A stretch of 64,000 nucleotides of DNA from a phage. The DNA lies in assembly GCA_037431425.1 (NCBI GenBank), contig GCA_037431425.1_4129.1; one strand, written 5' to 3'. Position 1 is the first letter of the stretch, and each line of letters begins with the position of its first letter. Shown in pieces: positions 55,347 to 60,646 of the stretch. A program made the translations under genes and the position numbers. The notes beneath the pieces were generated by a model. The model made no database searches. It had not been told where the DNA came from and saw only the letters and a program-made list of their open reading frames with translations.

Positions 55347-55795
55347 ATCCTGGACATTTTTTTCATTTACTGGACATTACACCTATACCCGATTTAATCA
55401 GCGAGACTAATCATTATCGTGATATTGGAATTGTATCAATGGAATATGATTCACCTGACTTTAAATGTTACGTAACATACGATCAGGTGGCTTATGAGTC
55501 AGAGCCTGCGATTAAAAAACCATCATATATTTTTGTGTTCATATATAATGATTATAGTGGTGATGTACTGAATGATGTTCATATTGACACATTTGAAATA
55601 TGTGGTAATATTATATCAGATGATTCAGCATCCACATTTGATTTGGAATTAAACAGTACTGAAGAGTCACTTTTTCAGTTGAGTACTATATGTGATACTA
55701 TATTAACTCTAGATGACATTGAGAAATTTAAAGAACAGCTTGACGCAGTTCGTGAGATGTTCTATAATCATTATCCAGAAGTAGAGTTCAATTAA
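55340..55795 (+). CDS. FQxS-motif paralogue family member
   Basis: C-terminal TEESLFQLSTICDT. Confidence 0.55.
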   Translation: MLNPGHFFHLLDITPIPDLISETNHYRDIGIVSMEYDSPDFKCYVTYDQVAYESEPAIKKPSYIFVFIYNDYSGDVLNDVHIDTFEICGNIISDDSASTFDLELNSTEESLFQLSTICDTILTLDDIEKFKEQLDAVREMFYNHYPEVEFN

Positions 55796-55809
55796 CTAAA
55801 GGTAATAAG

Positions 55810-56070
55810 ATGACTAAAGTAGTTCGTAAACGCCACATGATGAATATGGATGAATTTCGTACATTTGACAAATATCGTACTATGTTTCGTATGCTGTCAC
55901 AGGGTCGCCCAATCGTCATTGTAACAGAGAATTACATGTCACCTGAGATTATGTTTGGTAATTACGAAAAGGTCTTCATGTTGTACGTGAAGCGTGGATT
56001 GCTTACAATCAAGACATTAGCTGAAGCAACTGATGATGATATGGATGGAGATAATACCTTTACCATGTGA
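55810..56070 (+). CDS. Hypothetical protein
   Basis: 86-aa ORF. Confidence 0.45.
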   Translation: MTKVVRKRHMMNMDEFRTFDKYRTMFRMLSQGRPIVIVTENYMSPEIMFGNYEKVFMLYVKRGLLTIKTLAEATDDDMDGDNTFTM

Positions 56071-56148
56071 GGAAATATATGTCTGAAAAACCAAAAGAAC
56101 CTTTAGATCGTGATGATGATTTTTATGACGAACGATATGGAGATGATA

Positions 56149-56400
56149 ATGAGTGAACATAGTGCGGTGCTTAAAAAGATTTTAAAGGAAATTGATGGTG
56201 AGTTTAATGTCACAGAAGAAGAATATCAGCATTGGAAGAAAGATTTCGAACAACTAACCGAGTATGATAAAGTGTTCAATATGATTGGCGTAATTAGCCA
56301 GTACTTACTTGGTGGAGGACGTGCAAGTGCTTCAATTCTGGCATCTGCAATCATCTGTACATCACGATGGTGTGATGAAAAAAGTTTGGAAGATTTCTAA
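56149..56400 (+). CDS. Hypothetical protein
   Basis: ATG 56149 with GGAG upstream. Confidence 0.45.
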   Translation: MSEHSAVLKKILKEIDGEFNVTEEEYQHWKKDFEQLTEYDKVFNMIGVISQYLLGGGRASASILASAIICTSRWCDEKSLEDF

Positions 56401-56415
56401 ATAAGATGCTATAAT
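56386..56415 (+). promoter_or_regulatory. Sigma70-type promoter with extended -10 (TGcTATAAT)
   Basis: TATAAT 56410-56415 with TG 56407-56408; TTGGAA about 18 nt upstream. Confidence 0.5.
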
Positions 56416-56452
56416 ATATCAGAGTTCCTTAACAATATAAAAAGGATTTTAT

Positions 56453-58333
56453 ATGAAACCTATCCGAGTACTATCTCTTTTTAATGGGATGAGTGTAGGA
56501 TACATGGCATTAAAAGATGCTGGTATCCCTGTTGAAAAATATTATTCATCCGAAATTGACAAATTTGCTATAGCTGAATCCCAAGCTAACTTCCCCGATA
56601 TCATCCAATTGGGTGATGTAACTAGATGGAGAGAATGGGATATTGAATGGGATAAGATAGATCTACTGATGGGTGGTTTTCCATGCTTCCCAGCAGGAAC
56701 TATGATAATGACAAATAAAGGTCATAAAGATATAAAAGATATAAAAATTGGTGATATGGTTCTTACACACACTGGACAGTACCAAAAAGTATTGAGTACT
56801 GGTGTTAAAAAGGCTCCCACTCGTATTATTACAGGTCAAGGTCACCTTCCAATTGAATGTACCGATAATCATCCATTTTGGAGTAGGGAACGTCTAGCCA
56901 ATAAATGGAATAATCAACACCGAAGATATGATTCTGTGTTTTCTGAACCGCAATGGGTAAATGCTATAGATCTTACTAAACAAAGTTATATTTGTAATGT
57001 TAAAAATATTACACATAATACAGTAAGTGATAAAGATGAAAAATATTGGTATTTTGTTGGTCGTTTTATGGGTGATGGATGTGCTAGTGTATCTAATAAC
57101 AAATACAGTATTACTATTGTAGATTCATTAGATAAAGTTGATGAATTGAAAAAATGTTTTGATGATTTTGGATACAAATACACATTAGCTATTAAAGATA
57201 ATCATGTAAGATGTGATATATATAGCAAAAAGCTTTATGATGAATTAATATGTATTGGGCATAAATCACAAAACAAATGTTTACCACCTGAAATATTCAA
57301 TGAAACTATCAATAACAAAGAAGCATTTATTAAAGGATACATGGATGCAGATGGTTGTGAGGATAAACACAATAAAAAATACAAATTTACCACCACAAGT
57401 TATAAAATAGTTCTTGGTATGCAACAGTTAATCTTAGATACTTATCAACGTCATTGTACTATTAGTCAAACTGTTCCAAAAACAAAAAAATATATAAAAA
57501 ATAAGTTGGTTAATCAGCTTCCGTATTGGAATGTTCATTTTAGCTATAATAAAATTAAAAGAGATGATGTAATATATGATGAAATTTATATATGGAATCG
57601 TGGTGTAAAAAGTAATGTACCAACCGGAGAATGGAAAACCGTTTACAATATTGAAGTTGCAGTAGATAACACATATACAGCGAACAATATTGTAGTTCAT
57701 AACTGCCAAGCGTGGTCAGTTGCAGGTAAACAGGGTGGAATAAATGATCCTCGTGGTATGTTATTCCATACAATGGTTGATATTTACCAGCACATAAAAA
57801 GTCTCAATCCAGACTTGAAAGTACTGTTCGAGAATGTTAAAATGAAAGAAGATTTCAAGCAATACATTAATAGTGTTCTTGAGATGACACCAGTACTGAT
57901 AAATTCCCAGCATTATACGCCTCACTTCAGGCAGAGATATTACTGGTACAGTACTGATAAACTTTTTATACCACCTGCATTATCAAATGCACCTAAACTT
58001 CAAGATATTATTGAAGATGGTTGGTACACTGACAGAACCGCTTCGTACTGTATAGATGCTAACTATTTTAAGGGTGGGGATTGTAACCAGTACTTTAATA
58101 AATCAAGAAGACAAATTGTTTTCAAAGAACCTGATATCGATAGGGATTTCCTTCTTGAACATGGTAAGCGAAATGTGGACTATCGTCATTTAACAGTGCA
58201 AGAGTGTTGCATGTTGCAAGGAATTGATGTAAACTACTTCAAAGTTAGTAGTTCAACACAAGCATACAAAATGCTTGGGAATGGATGGACTATGCCAGTT
58301 ATATCACACTTACTACGAGATATATTCTTTTGA
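56453..58333 (+). CDS. DNA (cytosine-5)-methyltransferase interrupted by an intein
   Basis: Motif I LSLFNGMSVG; motif IV split as GGFP | intein | CQAWSVAGK; motif VI FENV; GNGWTMPV near C-terminus; host protein about 286 aa without the intein. Confidence 0.8.
   Translation: MKPIRVLSLFNGMSVGYMALKDAGIPVEKYYSSEIDKFAIAESQANFPDIIQLGDVTRWREWDIEWDKIDLLMGGFPCFPAGTMIMTNKGHKDIKDIKIGDMVLTHTGQYQKVLSTGVKKAPTRIITGQGHLPIECTDNHPFWSRERLANKWNNQHRRYDSVFSEPQWVNAIDLTKQSYICNVKNITHNTVSDKDEKYWYFVGRFMGDGCASVSNNKYSITIVDSLDKVDELKKCFDDFGYKYTLAIKDNHVRCDIYSKKLYDELICIGHKSQNKCLPPEIFNETINNKEAFIKGYMDADGCEDKHNKKYKFTTTSYKIVLGMQQLILDTYQRHCTISQTVPKTKKYIKNKLVNQLPYWNVHFSYNKIKRDDVIYDEIYIWNRGVKSNVPTGEWKTVYNIEVAVDNTYTANNIVVHNCQAWSVAGKQGGINDPRGMLFHTMVDIYQHIKSLNPDLKVLFENVKMKEDFKQYINSVLEMTPVLINSQHYTPHFRQRYYWYSTDKLFIPPALSNAPKLQDIIEDGWYTDRTASYCIDANYFKGGDCNQYFNKSRRQIVFKEPDIDRDFLLEHGKRNVDYRHLTVQECCMLQGIDVNYFKVSSSTQAYKMLGNGWTMPVISHLLRDIFF
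56684..57703 (+). mobile_element. Intein with LAGLIDADG homing endonuclease domain (340 aa)
   Basis: Starts CFPAGTMIMT (block A), ends VVHN followed by extein Cys; two LAGLIDADG-like motifs FVGRFMGDGC and IKGYMDADGC. Confidence 0.8.
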
Positions 58334-58815
58334 ACATAAACAAACACCAAACTTATATAAAACGTGCAGAAAGTTTCAAACGGCTGGCTGTAAAATCTGA
58401 ATTAGAATTTAATTTGTATTATCCTAATATTGGTGATGAGGTATTTTATTGCTCACATTCAAAGAATGGAACTTTACTTAAATCGGGTAAAGGAACTATT
58501 GTTGATATGACCGCAAATTTCAGAGGTAAACTTAATGTAATGTACAAAGTGCAAGATTCAAGTACTGAGTGTATTCATGAAGTGATGCATAACATACCTG
58601 CATATCCAAAAGATTTTGTTCAGCTAATATCTCGAAGGGAGAAACCTATGTTCTATTGTGGTTACGACAAATTAACCAAACAAATTATTCCTAATACTAT
58701 GGGAAAATTTAAAAGTGATGTAAAATCTGAATTAGAAAAGAAATTTGGTACATCATGGGAAACTGAAAACGAGTTTATCGAAATTCGTTTAATTGAAGTT
58801 ACTATTATTGATTAA
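58285..58815 (+). CDS. Hypothetical protein
   Basis: 176-aa ORF overlapping the methyltransferase 3' end; start uncertain. Confidence 0.4.
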   Translation: MDYASYITLTTRYILLNINKHQTYIKRAESFKRLAVKSELEFNLYYPNIGDEVFYCSHSKNGTLLKSGKGTIVDMTANFRGKLNVMYKVQDSSTECIHEVMHNIPAYPKDFVQLISRREKPMFYCGYDKLTKQIIPNTMGKFKSDVKSELEKKFGTSWETENEFIEIRLIEVTIID

Positions 58816-58821
58816 TTATAA

Positions 58822-58845
58822 ATCCACGCAATGCGTGGATTTTTT
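58822..58845 (+). terminator. Rho-independent terminator
   Basis: atccacgc / gcgtggat palindrome, then T5-6. Confidence 0.7.
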
Positions 58846-58858
58846 CATAGGTGTATAT

Positions 58859-59374
58859 ATGTCAATTCATTATGTTAAAATTATTAACAATATTCTTGAT
58901 TCTTGGGAAGATGTCATTATTGGCAAAAAGAAGCCTTTTCCAGTTCATGCACTAACTGGAAGACTACAATTCAGAATGTCAAACAAAACTGAAACGTTTA
59001 ATAATCATGATATTTGTATTACATTAAAAACACCTGTTAGTATTGTAATTAAAAAAAATAAAGATGATGAATTGTCATTATCTATTGGTCGTGATAAAAT
59101 TATTTTAAGTAATTTGTCTGAAGAAGAATTCTTTCAAAGAAGTACTATCATCGACATGAAAGATTTCACATATGAATCATTAGTAGAACTCAATACACGC
59201 TTTGATGATATTCAGGAACGATTGCGACCAATCCTTCGTAGAGAAGAAGAAGCCTGGATTGAAAGTATGAATAAGATGCAAGAAATGTTAAAAGAAAATA
59301 TTAACAATCTGGGTAAAGCCACAATGGAAATTGGTAAAACTTTAAAACTCAACTTTTCAAAGGATCGTAAATGA
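58859..59374 (+). CDS. FQxS-motif paralogue family member
   Basis: ATG 58859 with AGGTG upstream; SEEEFFQRSTIIDM. Confidence 0.55.
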   Translation: MSIHYVKIINNILDSWEDVIIGKKKPFPVHALTGRLQFRMSNKTETFNNHDICITLKTPVSIVIKKNKDDELSLSIGRDKIILSNLSEEEFFQRSTIIDMKDFTYESLVELNTRFDDIQERLRPILRREEEAWIESMNKMQEMLKENINNLGKATMEIGKTLKLNFSKDRK

Positions 59375-59823
59375 AAATCGATGAACTGATTTATATTTTA
59401 GGTAACTTGCACAAAATATTGTTACATCGTAACGAGATGAATAAACTAGGATATAATATAACTAATATAAATGAAACATCATTTAAATATAATTCAATCA
59501 CTGGTGTAAATTATAATATTGTGTATTGTCATGAAACTGACCCAGACTGCTATCAACTTACGTTATACTTTTATCCAACAAACCCTGCCATTGTTCAAGA
59601 CATATCATCAATATCACTTGACCCAGATGGTGAAATGAGTATAGAATATAGCTATGATTCTAAAAAAGAATGTTACGTTGAAGATATGAAAAATATGTTT
59701 AACGATGCATATGTGTTCCAGCTAAGTACTGTACATGATGTTGGAAGTACTAATGGGCAATTTTGGAATACATGCTATTATCATATGATTGGAATTTGTA
59801 AATTACTAAAAGGCGATGATTAA
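59371..59823 (+). CDS. FQxS-motif paralogue family member
   Basis: C-terminal DAYVFQLSTVHDV. Confidence 0.5.
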   Translation: MKIDELIYILGNLHKILLHRNEMNKLGYNITNINETSFKYNSITGVNYNIVYCHETDPDCYQLTLYFYPTNPAIVQDISSISLDPDGEMSIEYSYDSKKECYVEDMKNMFNDAYVFQLSTVHDVGSTNGQFWNTCYYHMIGICKLLKGDD

Positions 59824-60206
59824 TGAAATACAGCATTGAAGTACATTACACTACTGGTGATACTGAAAATCAATATAACATAGTTAAGACCGTTGATATT
59901 CAATGGGATACTAAAGAGGAAGCAGTTGCTGCTTTACAGTGCTTAAAAGAGCATTGGGTGTTTTATATGAAGCAAGATAATTGCTATACAAAAGAACACG
60001 AAACTATCGTTAAAAATGCTAAACAAAAAGAGTGGTTTGACCCAATTTCACCAGAATATTCATTTTTGGTTAAAGTTGGAGGCGTGACAGTTCCCTTACG
60101 AACACCGTGGAACGGCTACTTTGAAACTCTTCATAATGCACGAGTTGTCGCAGTTGACAATCCTGAACAAATCGATTTTGATTCATTGGACTGGAAAAAA
60201 TTATGA
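59823..60206 (+). CDS. Hypothetical protein
   Basis: 127-aa ORF, translationally coupled, no family motif. Confidence 0.5.
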   Translation: MKYSIEVHYTTGDTENQYNIVKTVDIQWDTKEEAVAALQCLKEHWVFYMKQDNCYTKEHETIVKNAKQKEWFDPISPEYSFLVKVGGVTVPLRTPWNGYFETLHNARVVAVDNPEQIDFDSLDWKKL

Positions 60207-60646
60207 CAGTACTGCACAGATTGAAGAAGGTTAAGCATCCAGTTGTATATGAGGACTGGAAACGACAAAAGTTACTGGGTGATTTTTATTACCCAAAATC
60301 TAAAGTTCTTGCGAATTCAAGATGTACATATATCAAACATAACGATAAAGATACAGTATTTGTTGAAATGGGGTTCAATCCATCAAATACAATGTTCAGT
60401 ACTAACCAAACATTTTACAAATTTCATATCAAAAAAGATGTATTTTCTATTAAAATTATAAAACATTTAGTTGAAGATCTGGTATACAGTGAAGAAAGAG
60501 TTCCTTTATCATTAGTGGATATTCCTTATAATAATTTAGAGGAAATGTACTTCCAACAGTTGACAGTACAAGAAAACTTTGGTATGATAGGACTTCAAGA
60601 GTTAGAGATGATTAAGCAAATTCGTGATATCTACTTTAAGGAGTAA
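60203..60646 (+). CDS. FQxS-motif paralogue family member (variant FQQLT)
   Basis: C-terminal LEEMYFQQLTVQEN. Confidence 0.5.
   Translation: MTVLHRLKKVKHPVVYEDWKRQKLLGDFYYPKSKVLANSRCTYIKHNDKDTVFVEMGFNPSNTMFSTNQTFYKFHIKKDVFSIKIIKHLVEDLVYSEERVPLSLVDIPYNNLEEMYFQQLTVQENFGMIGLQELEMIKQIRDIYFKE

Follow-up and report, generated by a model that had tools for sequence, protein, structure and literature searches.

An endonuclease-bearing class-1 intein before the catalytic cysteine of a C5-cytosine methyltransferase in an Asteriusvirus jumbo coliphage, with proposed splicing and homing

The locus described here raises the question of whether a phage DNA methyltransferase gene whose catalytic motif is split by 340 additional codons is a broken gene or encodes the precursor of an enzyme that protein splicing would restore. 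The gene lies in the window, by which we mean the whole stretch of 64,000 nucleotides of phage DNA that was analysed (GenBank assembly GCA_037431425.1, contig GCA_037431425.1_4129.1). A preliminary description had recognized the additional segment as an intein, and its insert coordinates and junctions proved exact to the base when the open reading frame (ORF) was translated. We consider it very probable that the insert is a canonical class-1, endonuclease-bearing intein in the methyltransferase of an Asteriusvirus (121Q/PBECO4-like) jumbo coliphage, with splicing and homing as proposed below. The gene is 99.7% identical in DNA sequence to UES1_076 of Escherichia phage UE-S1, annotated 'cytosine specific methyltransferase', and 99.2% identical to the 'cytosine specific methyltransferase' gene of ph0011. 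UE-S1 and ph0011 are jumbo myophages of about 350 kb in the genus Asteriusvirus, and the ORF is unbroken both in the window and in isolates of Pakistani and Brazilian origin.

The insert is a class-1 intein, as it is absent from orthologues, has Cys1 and a TxxH block, ends in His-Asn followed by a +1 cysteine and belongs to the Hint fold. With two LAGLIDADG motifs, which lie about 90–100 residues apart and each carry a catalytic acidic residue, and, in the structural model, an endonuclease fold nested in the splicing domain, it is also predicted to be a double-motif LAGLIDADG endonuclease. Pfam, motifs and structural matches thereby bear out the full-size intein with two LAGLIDADG motifs that had been described earlier. 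Searched on its own against Pfam, the insert matched Hint_2 (E = 7.7e-8, 33.3 bits, cutoff 28.4) and LAGLIDADG_3 (PF14528; E = 6.5e-11, 42.8 bits, cutoff 22.5; covering intein residues 212–254), while Intein_splicing, Hom_end_hint and Hom_end gave sub-threshold matches. For conservation, the window protein and 65 intein-bearing homologues were aligned with MAFFT (66 sequences in total, 33–74% identity); in this alignment C78, F79, T137, H140, K275, D300, G301, D405, H416, N417 and C418 are invariant, together with V397, V402 and Y408 of blocks F and G, and D208 is kept in at least 90% of the sequences. A sequence search of the PDB with the intein gave a weak match alone, to the N-terminal part of the gp41-1 mini-intein (E = 3e-4), so a structure-based search was required. 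The AlphaFold2 model of the precursor, built on the same alignment, has a mean predicted local distance difference test (pLDDT) score of 87.3, which falls below 50 only at residues 75–78 and 419–436, the interrupted catalytic loop; the endonuclease core blocks are modelled at 82–96. Foldseek matched the insert of this model to PI-SceI (E = 5e-19), the TliVMA intein (template modelling (TM) score 0.70) and PI-PfuI in the PDB, over about 400–460 aligned columns that include the endonuclease fold nested in the splicing domain.

Intein-free relatives locate the insertion precisely. The gene is present in 37 phage records, most of which, including 121Q, PBECO4 and phAPEC6, have an 861-bp version. 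In 121Q the product gp91 ('DNA-cytosine-methyltransferase', AIT13988.1; 286 residues) is an orthologous extein in the same neighbourhood with 87% protein identity to the window. Its alignment with the window is gap-free except for one clean deletion of 340 codons, across which GGFP-CQAWSVAGK, and likewise GGFPCQAWSVAGK, is contiguous; the 121Q gene differs from that of the window in having no 1020-bp intein. The alleles of fEgEco12 and Turkey3 are without exactly the same 340 codons, so that a check of the junctions against intein-free homologues returns residues 78–417 in all three phages. A methyltransferase domain running contiguously through this region in homologues had been named earlier as the finding that would speak against an intein; the opposite was found, the 340-residue segment being absent from the intein-free alleles. 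Alleles with and without the segment differ at a single precise position, which is characteristic of an intein.

The interrupted host is a recognizable methyltransferase. The PF00145 (DNA_methylase) score increases from 101 bits for the precursor, where the match is in three stretches, to 121.6 bits for the extein spliced in silico, with profile positions 1–72 matching residues 4–79 of the precursor; the NCBIfam model TIGR00675 (dcm; cutoff 100.65) rises from 94.4 bits on the precursor to 114.1 bits on the spliced sequence. The spliced extein has 286 residues with motifs I, IV, VI, VIII and X in order, and the methyltransferase residues F10, G12, E34, G75, P77, E460-N461-V462, R493, R495 and G609 are invariant in the 66 sequences. 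Mammalian DNMT3A/3B are the closest solved structures to the extein (E = 2.6e-24), with M.HhaI and M.HaeIII behind (E about 5e-17), and in Foldseek the two extein halves of the AlphaFold2 model jointly match the DNMT3A/3B catalytic domains (TM score 0.77). The stretch GGFPCQAWS aligns onto GGSPCNDLS of DNMT3A. The PC-motif cysteine of DNMT3A and M.HhaI is the nucleophile that attacks C6 of cytosine, and since Cys418 aligns with this cysteine of DNMT3A, the +1 splicing residue is the catalytic cysteine. The placement of the insertion between proline and cysteine of motif IV, with the catalytic cysteine as +1 residue, was correctly anticipated and is confirmed by this alignment and by the empty alleles. 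Judged by its sequence, the spliced product appears to be an orphan, DNMT3-like C5-cytosine methyltransferase, whose role is presumably to protect phage DNA from restriction. The extein is compact and has a short target-recognition region.

Table 1. Features of the intein-containing methyltransferase gene in the window, and same-site inteins in other phages (^ marks the point of insertion; coordinates are those of the window unless a locus is named).
Feature	Position	Strand	Residues	Remarks
Precursor ORF	56453..58333	+		Intact, 626 residues plus stop; intein-containing C5-cytosine DNA methyltransferase
N-extein	56453..56683	+	1–77	Ends in DLLMGGFP, the first half of motif IV
Motif I, LFNGMSVG			9–16	N-extein; aligned with DNMT3A SLFDGIATG ... 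GGSP
Pro77	56681–56683	+	77	-1 residue, directly before the intein
Class-1 intein	56684..57703	+	78–417	340 residues, Cys1 to Asn340; CFPAGTMIMT...NNIVVHN
Block A, CFPAGT	56684..56701	+		Cys1 (residue 78) is the nucleophile of the N-S acyl shift; C78 and F79 invariant
Variable endonuclease core cassette	56783..57658	+	about 111–402
Block B, TDNH (TxxH)	56861..56872	+	137–140	T137 and H140 invariant
LAGLIDADG motif 1, FVGRFMGDG	57053..57079	+	201–209	Acidic D208; G203 and G209 invariant
LAGLIDADG motif 2, FIKGYMDADG	57326..57355	+	292–301	Acidic D300; D300, G301 and K275 invariant
Blocks F and G	57641..57703	+		VYNIEVAVDNTY ... NIVVHN; penultimate His416 and terminal Asn417 (succinimide formation)
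C-extein	57704..58330	+	418–626	Opens with CQAWSVAGK
Cys418	57704..57706	+	418	+1 splicing nucleophile and motif IV (P-C-Q) catalytic cysteine
Putative co-conversion tract	57704..57900	+		C-extein stretch that may travel with the intein
Motif VI, ENV (FENV)			460–462	C-extein
Motif VIII (RxR), RQRYYW			493–498	C-extein
Motif X, GNGW			609–612	C-extein
Lactobacillus phage Nyseid				FGFP^CQDISVAG; PF00145 confirmed
Propionibacterium phage B22				GGSP^CQDLSMAG; PF00145 confirmed
Erwinia phage pEa_SNUABM_5				GSPP^CKGFSTAG; PF00145 confirmed
P1-like Escherichia phage RCS47, Dmt	L007:2501-3523			GGTP^CQAFSIAG; PF00145 confirmed
Mannheimia phage vB_MhS_587AP2	L006:1264-3100			Same-site intein; C-extein broken
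Pseudomonas phage Lana, gp71	L009:1501-2535			...FSPD^CTHFSVAK

We propose that the gene is translated as a 626-residue precursor in which the catalytic loop of the methyltransferase is interrupted. Cys78 (Cys1), aided by T137 and H140, would undergo an N-S acyl shift onto the carbonyl of Pro77, Cys418 would attack the resulting thioester, and Asn417 would cyclise with the assistance of His416, releasing the 340-residue intein. A final S-N shift would restore the Pro77-Cys418 bond and rebuild GGFPCQAWS in a DNMT3-like methyltransferase of 286 residues, whose activity should need splicing. The ratio of non-synonymous to synonymous substitution rates (dN/dS) between intein-bearing alleles is 0.03–0.19 in the exteins and 0.06–0.18 in the N-terminal splicing domain. 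Methyltransferase residues and purifying selection that are kept behind the intein imply splicing, and we regard the support that conservation and selection give to a splicing precursor as good.

Inteins at this site are widespread. Of the 120 clusters (90% identity) found with the whole protein as query, 119 have an intein at the same site, and an HMMER scan with the intein alone returned 5939 representatives at E <= 1e-3, of which 287 reached E <= 1e-30. Intein ends were mapped by phmmer coordinates in 292 retrieved proteins, and both ends could be placed in 284, of which 264 (93%) have the junctions xP^CF...HN^C(Q/T)xxS; the remainder are mainly DnaE inteins. The view that an intein at the nucleophile of a DNA-modification enzyme is unusual does not survive this count. 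The window intein is real, but it is one of a large, already catalogued group and far from rare, and same-site inteins are very ordinary in the data, though little noticed. Pro(-1) occurs in 258 of the 264 same-site members and is also frequent in the DnaE relatives of the clade (HP^C); as the norm of the family, it suggests that the family is presumably adapted to this residue. The nearest relatives outside the methyltransferases, with H[PA]^CG junctions, were considered as inteins before the catalytic cysteine of thymidylate synthase, which would have mirrored the chemistry seen here. This idea was discarded, as their hosts proved to be DNA polymerase III alpha (DnaE) and one radical-SAM protein.

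Homologous inteins stand before the motif IV cysteine in several cultured phages (Table 1), none of them annotated as an intein; five of these phages (Nyseid, B22, pEa_SNUABM_5, RCS47 and 587AP2), whose hosts are unrelated, have theirs at the very site used in the window. In Mannheimia phage vB_MhS_587AP2 the frame breaks just past the C-terminal junction (HN^CQS... and then stops) and the remaining methyltransferase is a separate, overlapping coding sequence, so that this allele is either a decaying copy or the product of a sequencing frameshift; an HNH endonuclease gene lies just downstream of the methyltransferase. In gp71 of Pseudomonas phage Lana the -1 residue is Asp, not Pro, and the PF00145 match is weak (42.6 bits). 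Its intein stands before the cysteine of a divergent motif, so this intein clade has also spread into a distantly related subfamily of methyltransferases. Of 5426 complete E. coli genomes, 152 (2.8%) carry the P1-like Dmt intein, in genes whose annotation reads 'Dam family ... methyltransferase' or 'LAGLIDADG family homing endonuclease'. On the metagenomic phage contig SRR11343826_44400 (L016:2666-8130), an intein-bearing C5-methyltransferase (P0041) adjoins the large subunit of ribonucleotide reductase, which carries a LAGLIDADG intein of its own, giving two inteins in adjacent genes.

Within the 37 related phage records, tblastn with the intein found it in five (UE-S1, ph0011, TH47, A4 and JNE01). 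The freed intein is expected to act as a double-motif LAGLIDADG endonuclease that would cut the intein-free motif IV codons during mixed infection, in 121Q at the predicted site GGTGGTTTCCCA^TGCCAAGCCTGG, expected in gp91 around GGTGGTTTCCCA^TGCCAAGCCTGGTCAGTT; recombinational repair would then copy the intein in and drag adjacent extein sequence along. The first 100–200 nucleotides or so of the C-extein are common to all four intein-bearing lineages. After the junction, the C-extein is window-like in TH47 for about 200 nucleotides (91–100% identity), in JNE01 for about 130 (86–97%) and in A4 for about 100 (84–100%), whereas intein-free 121Q is 60–86% identical to the window at nucleotides 15–180 after the insertion point. 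TH47 turns 121Q-like by about nucleotide 400, and its distal C-extein is 99% identical in protein sequence to 121Q and 85% to the window. This shared flank suggests a trace of co-conversion during homing. Inteins and exteins are also discordant among homologues: the inteins of P0069 and P0076 are 98% identical and their exteins 66%, and, in reverse, the exteins of the window and of P0005, a protein encoded by a metagenome-assembled sister phage, are 99% identical and their inteins 53%. Purifying selection acts on the endonuclease core in TH47, JNE01 and A4 (dN/dS 0.10–0.13).

Over window positions 55517–60280 this sister phage has 93–100% DNA identity to the window, the interior of the intein excepted. 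Compared with the region that holds its core cassette (L014:3001-4896), the intein codons of the window are 100% identical over codons 78–110, decay over 111–140, are about 50% identical over 141–402 and reach 97% from codon 403. The window-type core has at most 45% protein identity to every other copy among the 292 retrieved relatives, and in an HMMER scan of 1.84 billion cluster representatives the best match beyond the intein's own cluster was 40% identical. The middle of the window intein looks like a swapped endonuclease-core cassette. These sequence comparisons are most simply read as competition between two old intein lineages for one site, with recombination via their conserved ends (blocks A/B and F/G). 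The endonuclease core (56903–57607, residues 151–385) is AT-rich, with a GC content of 0.27 and a third-position GC content (GC3) of 0.15, compared with GC3 of 0.29–0.32 in the exteins and 0.33 in the window.

Around the gene, the next ORF (58285–58815, plus strand, 176 residues) overlaps the last 49 nucleotides of the methyltransferase gene if it is read from its first ATG. The same 49-nucleotide overlap is annotated in ph0011 and in the sister phage, a later start is annotated in UE-S1, and the overlap in 121Q is 4 nucleotides. No second intein came to light in the window, either by phmmer with the intein as query against the ORFs of all six frames or by a motif scan.

Several observations weigh against the interpretation as a splicing and homing intein. 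Splicing, DNA cleavage and methylation are all deduced from sequence. Natural and engineered inteins with proline at -1 have been reported to fail to splice (PMC6486613), and splicing of the window precursor could accordingly be slow or inefficient; when the literature was searched for natural inteins with this residue, solely this engineering report emerged, and the rarity of Pro(-1) in nature is taken from its statement. Block F reads VYN...DNTY, in which Asn takes the place of the Asp or His of many class-1 inteins, although in the 66-sequence alignment this is a trait of the whole intein family and not particular to the window copy. The window-type core forms an orphan lineage, to which no other copy exceeds 45% identity; its dN/dS of 0.41–0.66 against the other core type is uninformative on selection as dS is saturated, and the three synonymous and two non-synonymous changes among the cores of the window, UE-S1 and ph0011 are too few for a selection test. 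Finally, the mosaic flanks could stem from ordinary phage recombination and not from endonuclease-initiated homing, and the patchy presence of the intein, the shared flank and the intein/extein discordance are compatible with homing and general recombination alike.

These points bear unequally on the alternatives. It is unlikely, in our view, that the intein splices while its endonuclease is inactive, at a late stage of the homing cycle and with vertical inheritance or general recombination accounting for its spread. The isolation of the window-type core, its dN/dS against the other core type and its occurrence in only three GenBank phages would fit such inactivity, but D208, D300 and K275 are retained, the core is modelled confidently and is free of stops and frameshifts, the sister core type is under purifying selection, and the intein is patchily distributed with mosaic flanks. 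We rate as improbable a regulatory intein whose conditional or slow splicing, through a redox disulfide between Cys1 and Cys+1 or through Pro(-1), times or gates phage DNA methylation. Both splice nucleophiles are indeed cysteines, and the one at +1 also serves the enzyme as its nucleophile; other inteins are kinetically disfavoured by a proline at -1 (PMC6486613), and conditional splicing is documented elsewhere, to judge from titles that include PMC6195587 and PMC4513877. No sequence feature points specifically to regulation, however, 32 of the 37 sister phage records manage without the intein, and endonuclease targeting of the most conserved codons explains the insertion site sufficiently.

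A dead insertion, an intein by descent that no longer splices, for instance on account of the proline, and leaves the methyltransferase gene disrupted and non-functional, seems very improbable to us. Beyond the reported incompatibility of Pro at -1 with splicing in other inteins (PMC6486613), it could draw on the broken C-extein of phage 587AP2 and on a methyltransferase that is probably dispensable, its homologue having been detected in only 37 phage records. Against it stand an ORF that is intact in the window and in both isolates, splicing residues and methyltransferase motifs that are invariant across 66 divergent intein-bearing homologues, the low dN/dS of the exteins between intein-bearing alleles, and the prevalence of Pro(-1) in the same-site family, which marks it as native context and not a lesion. 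That the segment is no intein at all, but either a methyltransferase domain that runs on uninterrupted or a homing endonuclease gene, free-standing or carried by an intron, can be practically dismissed. Nothing was found in its favour, and it is refuted by the single continuous reading frame, the Hint_2 and LAGLIDADG_3 matches, the Foldseek matches with a LAGLIDADG domain nested within the Hint fold, and the empty alleles, in which the segment is wholly missing from homologous methyltransferases. With the splicing and homing intein thus preferred, we add a speculative suggestion of which we are doubtful ourselves: the large family (at least 258 mapped members), with proline as its native -1 residue and the host's catalytic cysteine as +1 nucleophile, may have acquired either an N-S acyl shift that tolerates Pro(-1), as engineered and other tested inteins reportedly do not, or slow or conditional splicing that delays phage methylation after translation, and the interchangeable cores between its conserved ends may be competing homing specificities that vie for one site in one genus of phages.

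The finding in the window leaves the current understanding of inteins unchanged; what is noteworthy about it are the natural allele pairs, the stretch of flank that accompanies the intein, the apparent core swap and the Pro(-1) junction. It is a clean case of an intein in the most conserved codons of an enzyme that uses the host nucleophile as its +1 residue. For annotation, it means that this gene and hundreds of similar ones, the P1-like Dmt copy included, are filed as 'DNA cytosine methyltransferase', 'Dam family methyltransferase' or 'hypothetical protein'; the mature enzyme would be 340 residues shorter than recorded, and the homing endonuclease is passed over. Asteriusvirus, with natural intein-bearing and intein-free pairs and two core types in near-identical genomes, is a ready system for crosses that measure homing, co-conversion and competition between inteins. 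If the report on Pro at -1 is right, proline-tolerant inteins might be had from nature in this family, or its members may be slow splicers; inteins with a native ability to splice after proline would serve protein engineering, provided that they splice efficiently.

Inteins in phage DNA methyltransferases have been reported before. A 2025 preprint counts a C-5 methylase among intein hosts, and its supplement lists gp50 of phage B22 as 'DNA methylase, C-5, class 1, LAGLIDADG' with a ±30-nucleotide site that reads ...GGSP^CQDLSMAG (bioRxiv 10.1101/2025.01.02.630785). Inteins have further been described in N6/N4 methylases of mycobacteriophages (Kelley et al. 2016, PMC5050341) and in N6/N4 DNA methylases of actinophages (Gosselin et al. 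2023, PMC9957025). Our literature searches found no paper on an intein in Asteriusvirus or with an explicit description of a methyltransferase intein at the catalytic cysteine or motif IV; the apparent hits PMC6266608, PMC11437467, PMC7824862, PMC7344957 and PMC6906374 name inteins solely in connection with other genes or among the references they cite.

Among the known systems, B22 gp50 likewise has a class-1 LAGLIDADG intein in a PF00145/IPR001525 methyltransferase at the identical position. The two inteins are homologous over their full length (tblastn E = 4e-22) but only 27% identical, and B22 is a 37-kb actinophage with a methyltransferase extein of about 380 residues, in contrast to the coliphage of about 350 kb and the compact 286-residue DNMT3-like extein of the window. 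The Dmt intein of RCS47 (341 residues) interrupts its host at the same point before the motif IV cysteine and has the same architecture; it shares 27% identity with the window intein and resides in a fusion of C5 and Dam (D12 class) methyltransferases of 1095 residues including the intein. The actinophage N6/N4 methylases are, like the window enzyme, orphan phage DNA methyltransferases with LAGLIDADG inteins, and these inteins are homologous to ours (24% identity, E about 1e-20), but they occupy another extein family (PF01555) and another insertion site, not at a catalytic cysteine. The best structural matches, PI-SceI (Sce VMA1), TliVMA and PI-PfuI, have the same architecture of a Hint domain and a double-motif LAGLIDADG endonuclease (Foldseek E = 5e-19 to 2e-12, TM scores up to 0.70). 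They share 13–17% sequence identity with the window intein, which is smaller (340 versus 454 residues), and their exteins are V-ATPase and ribonucleotide reductase.

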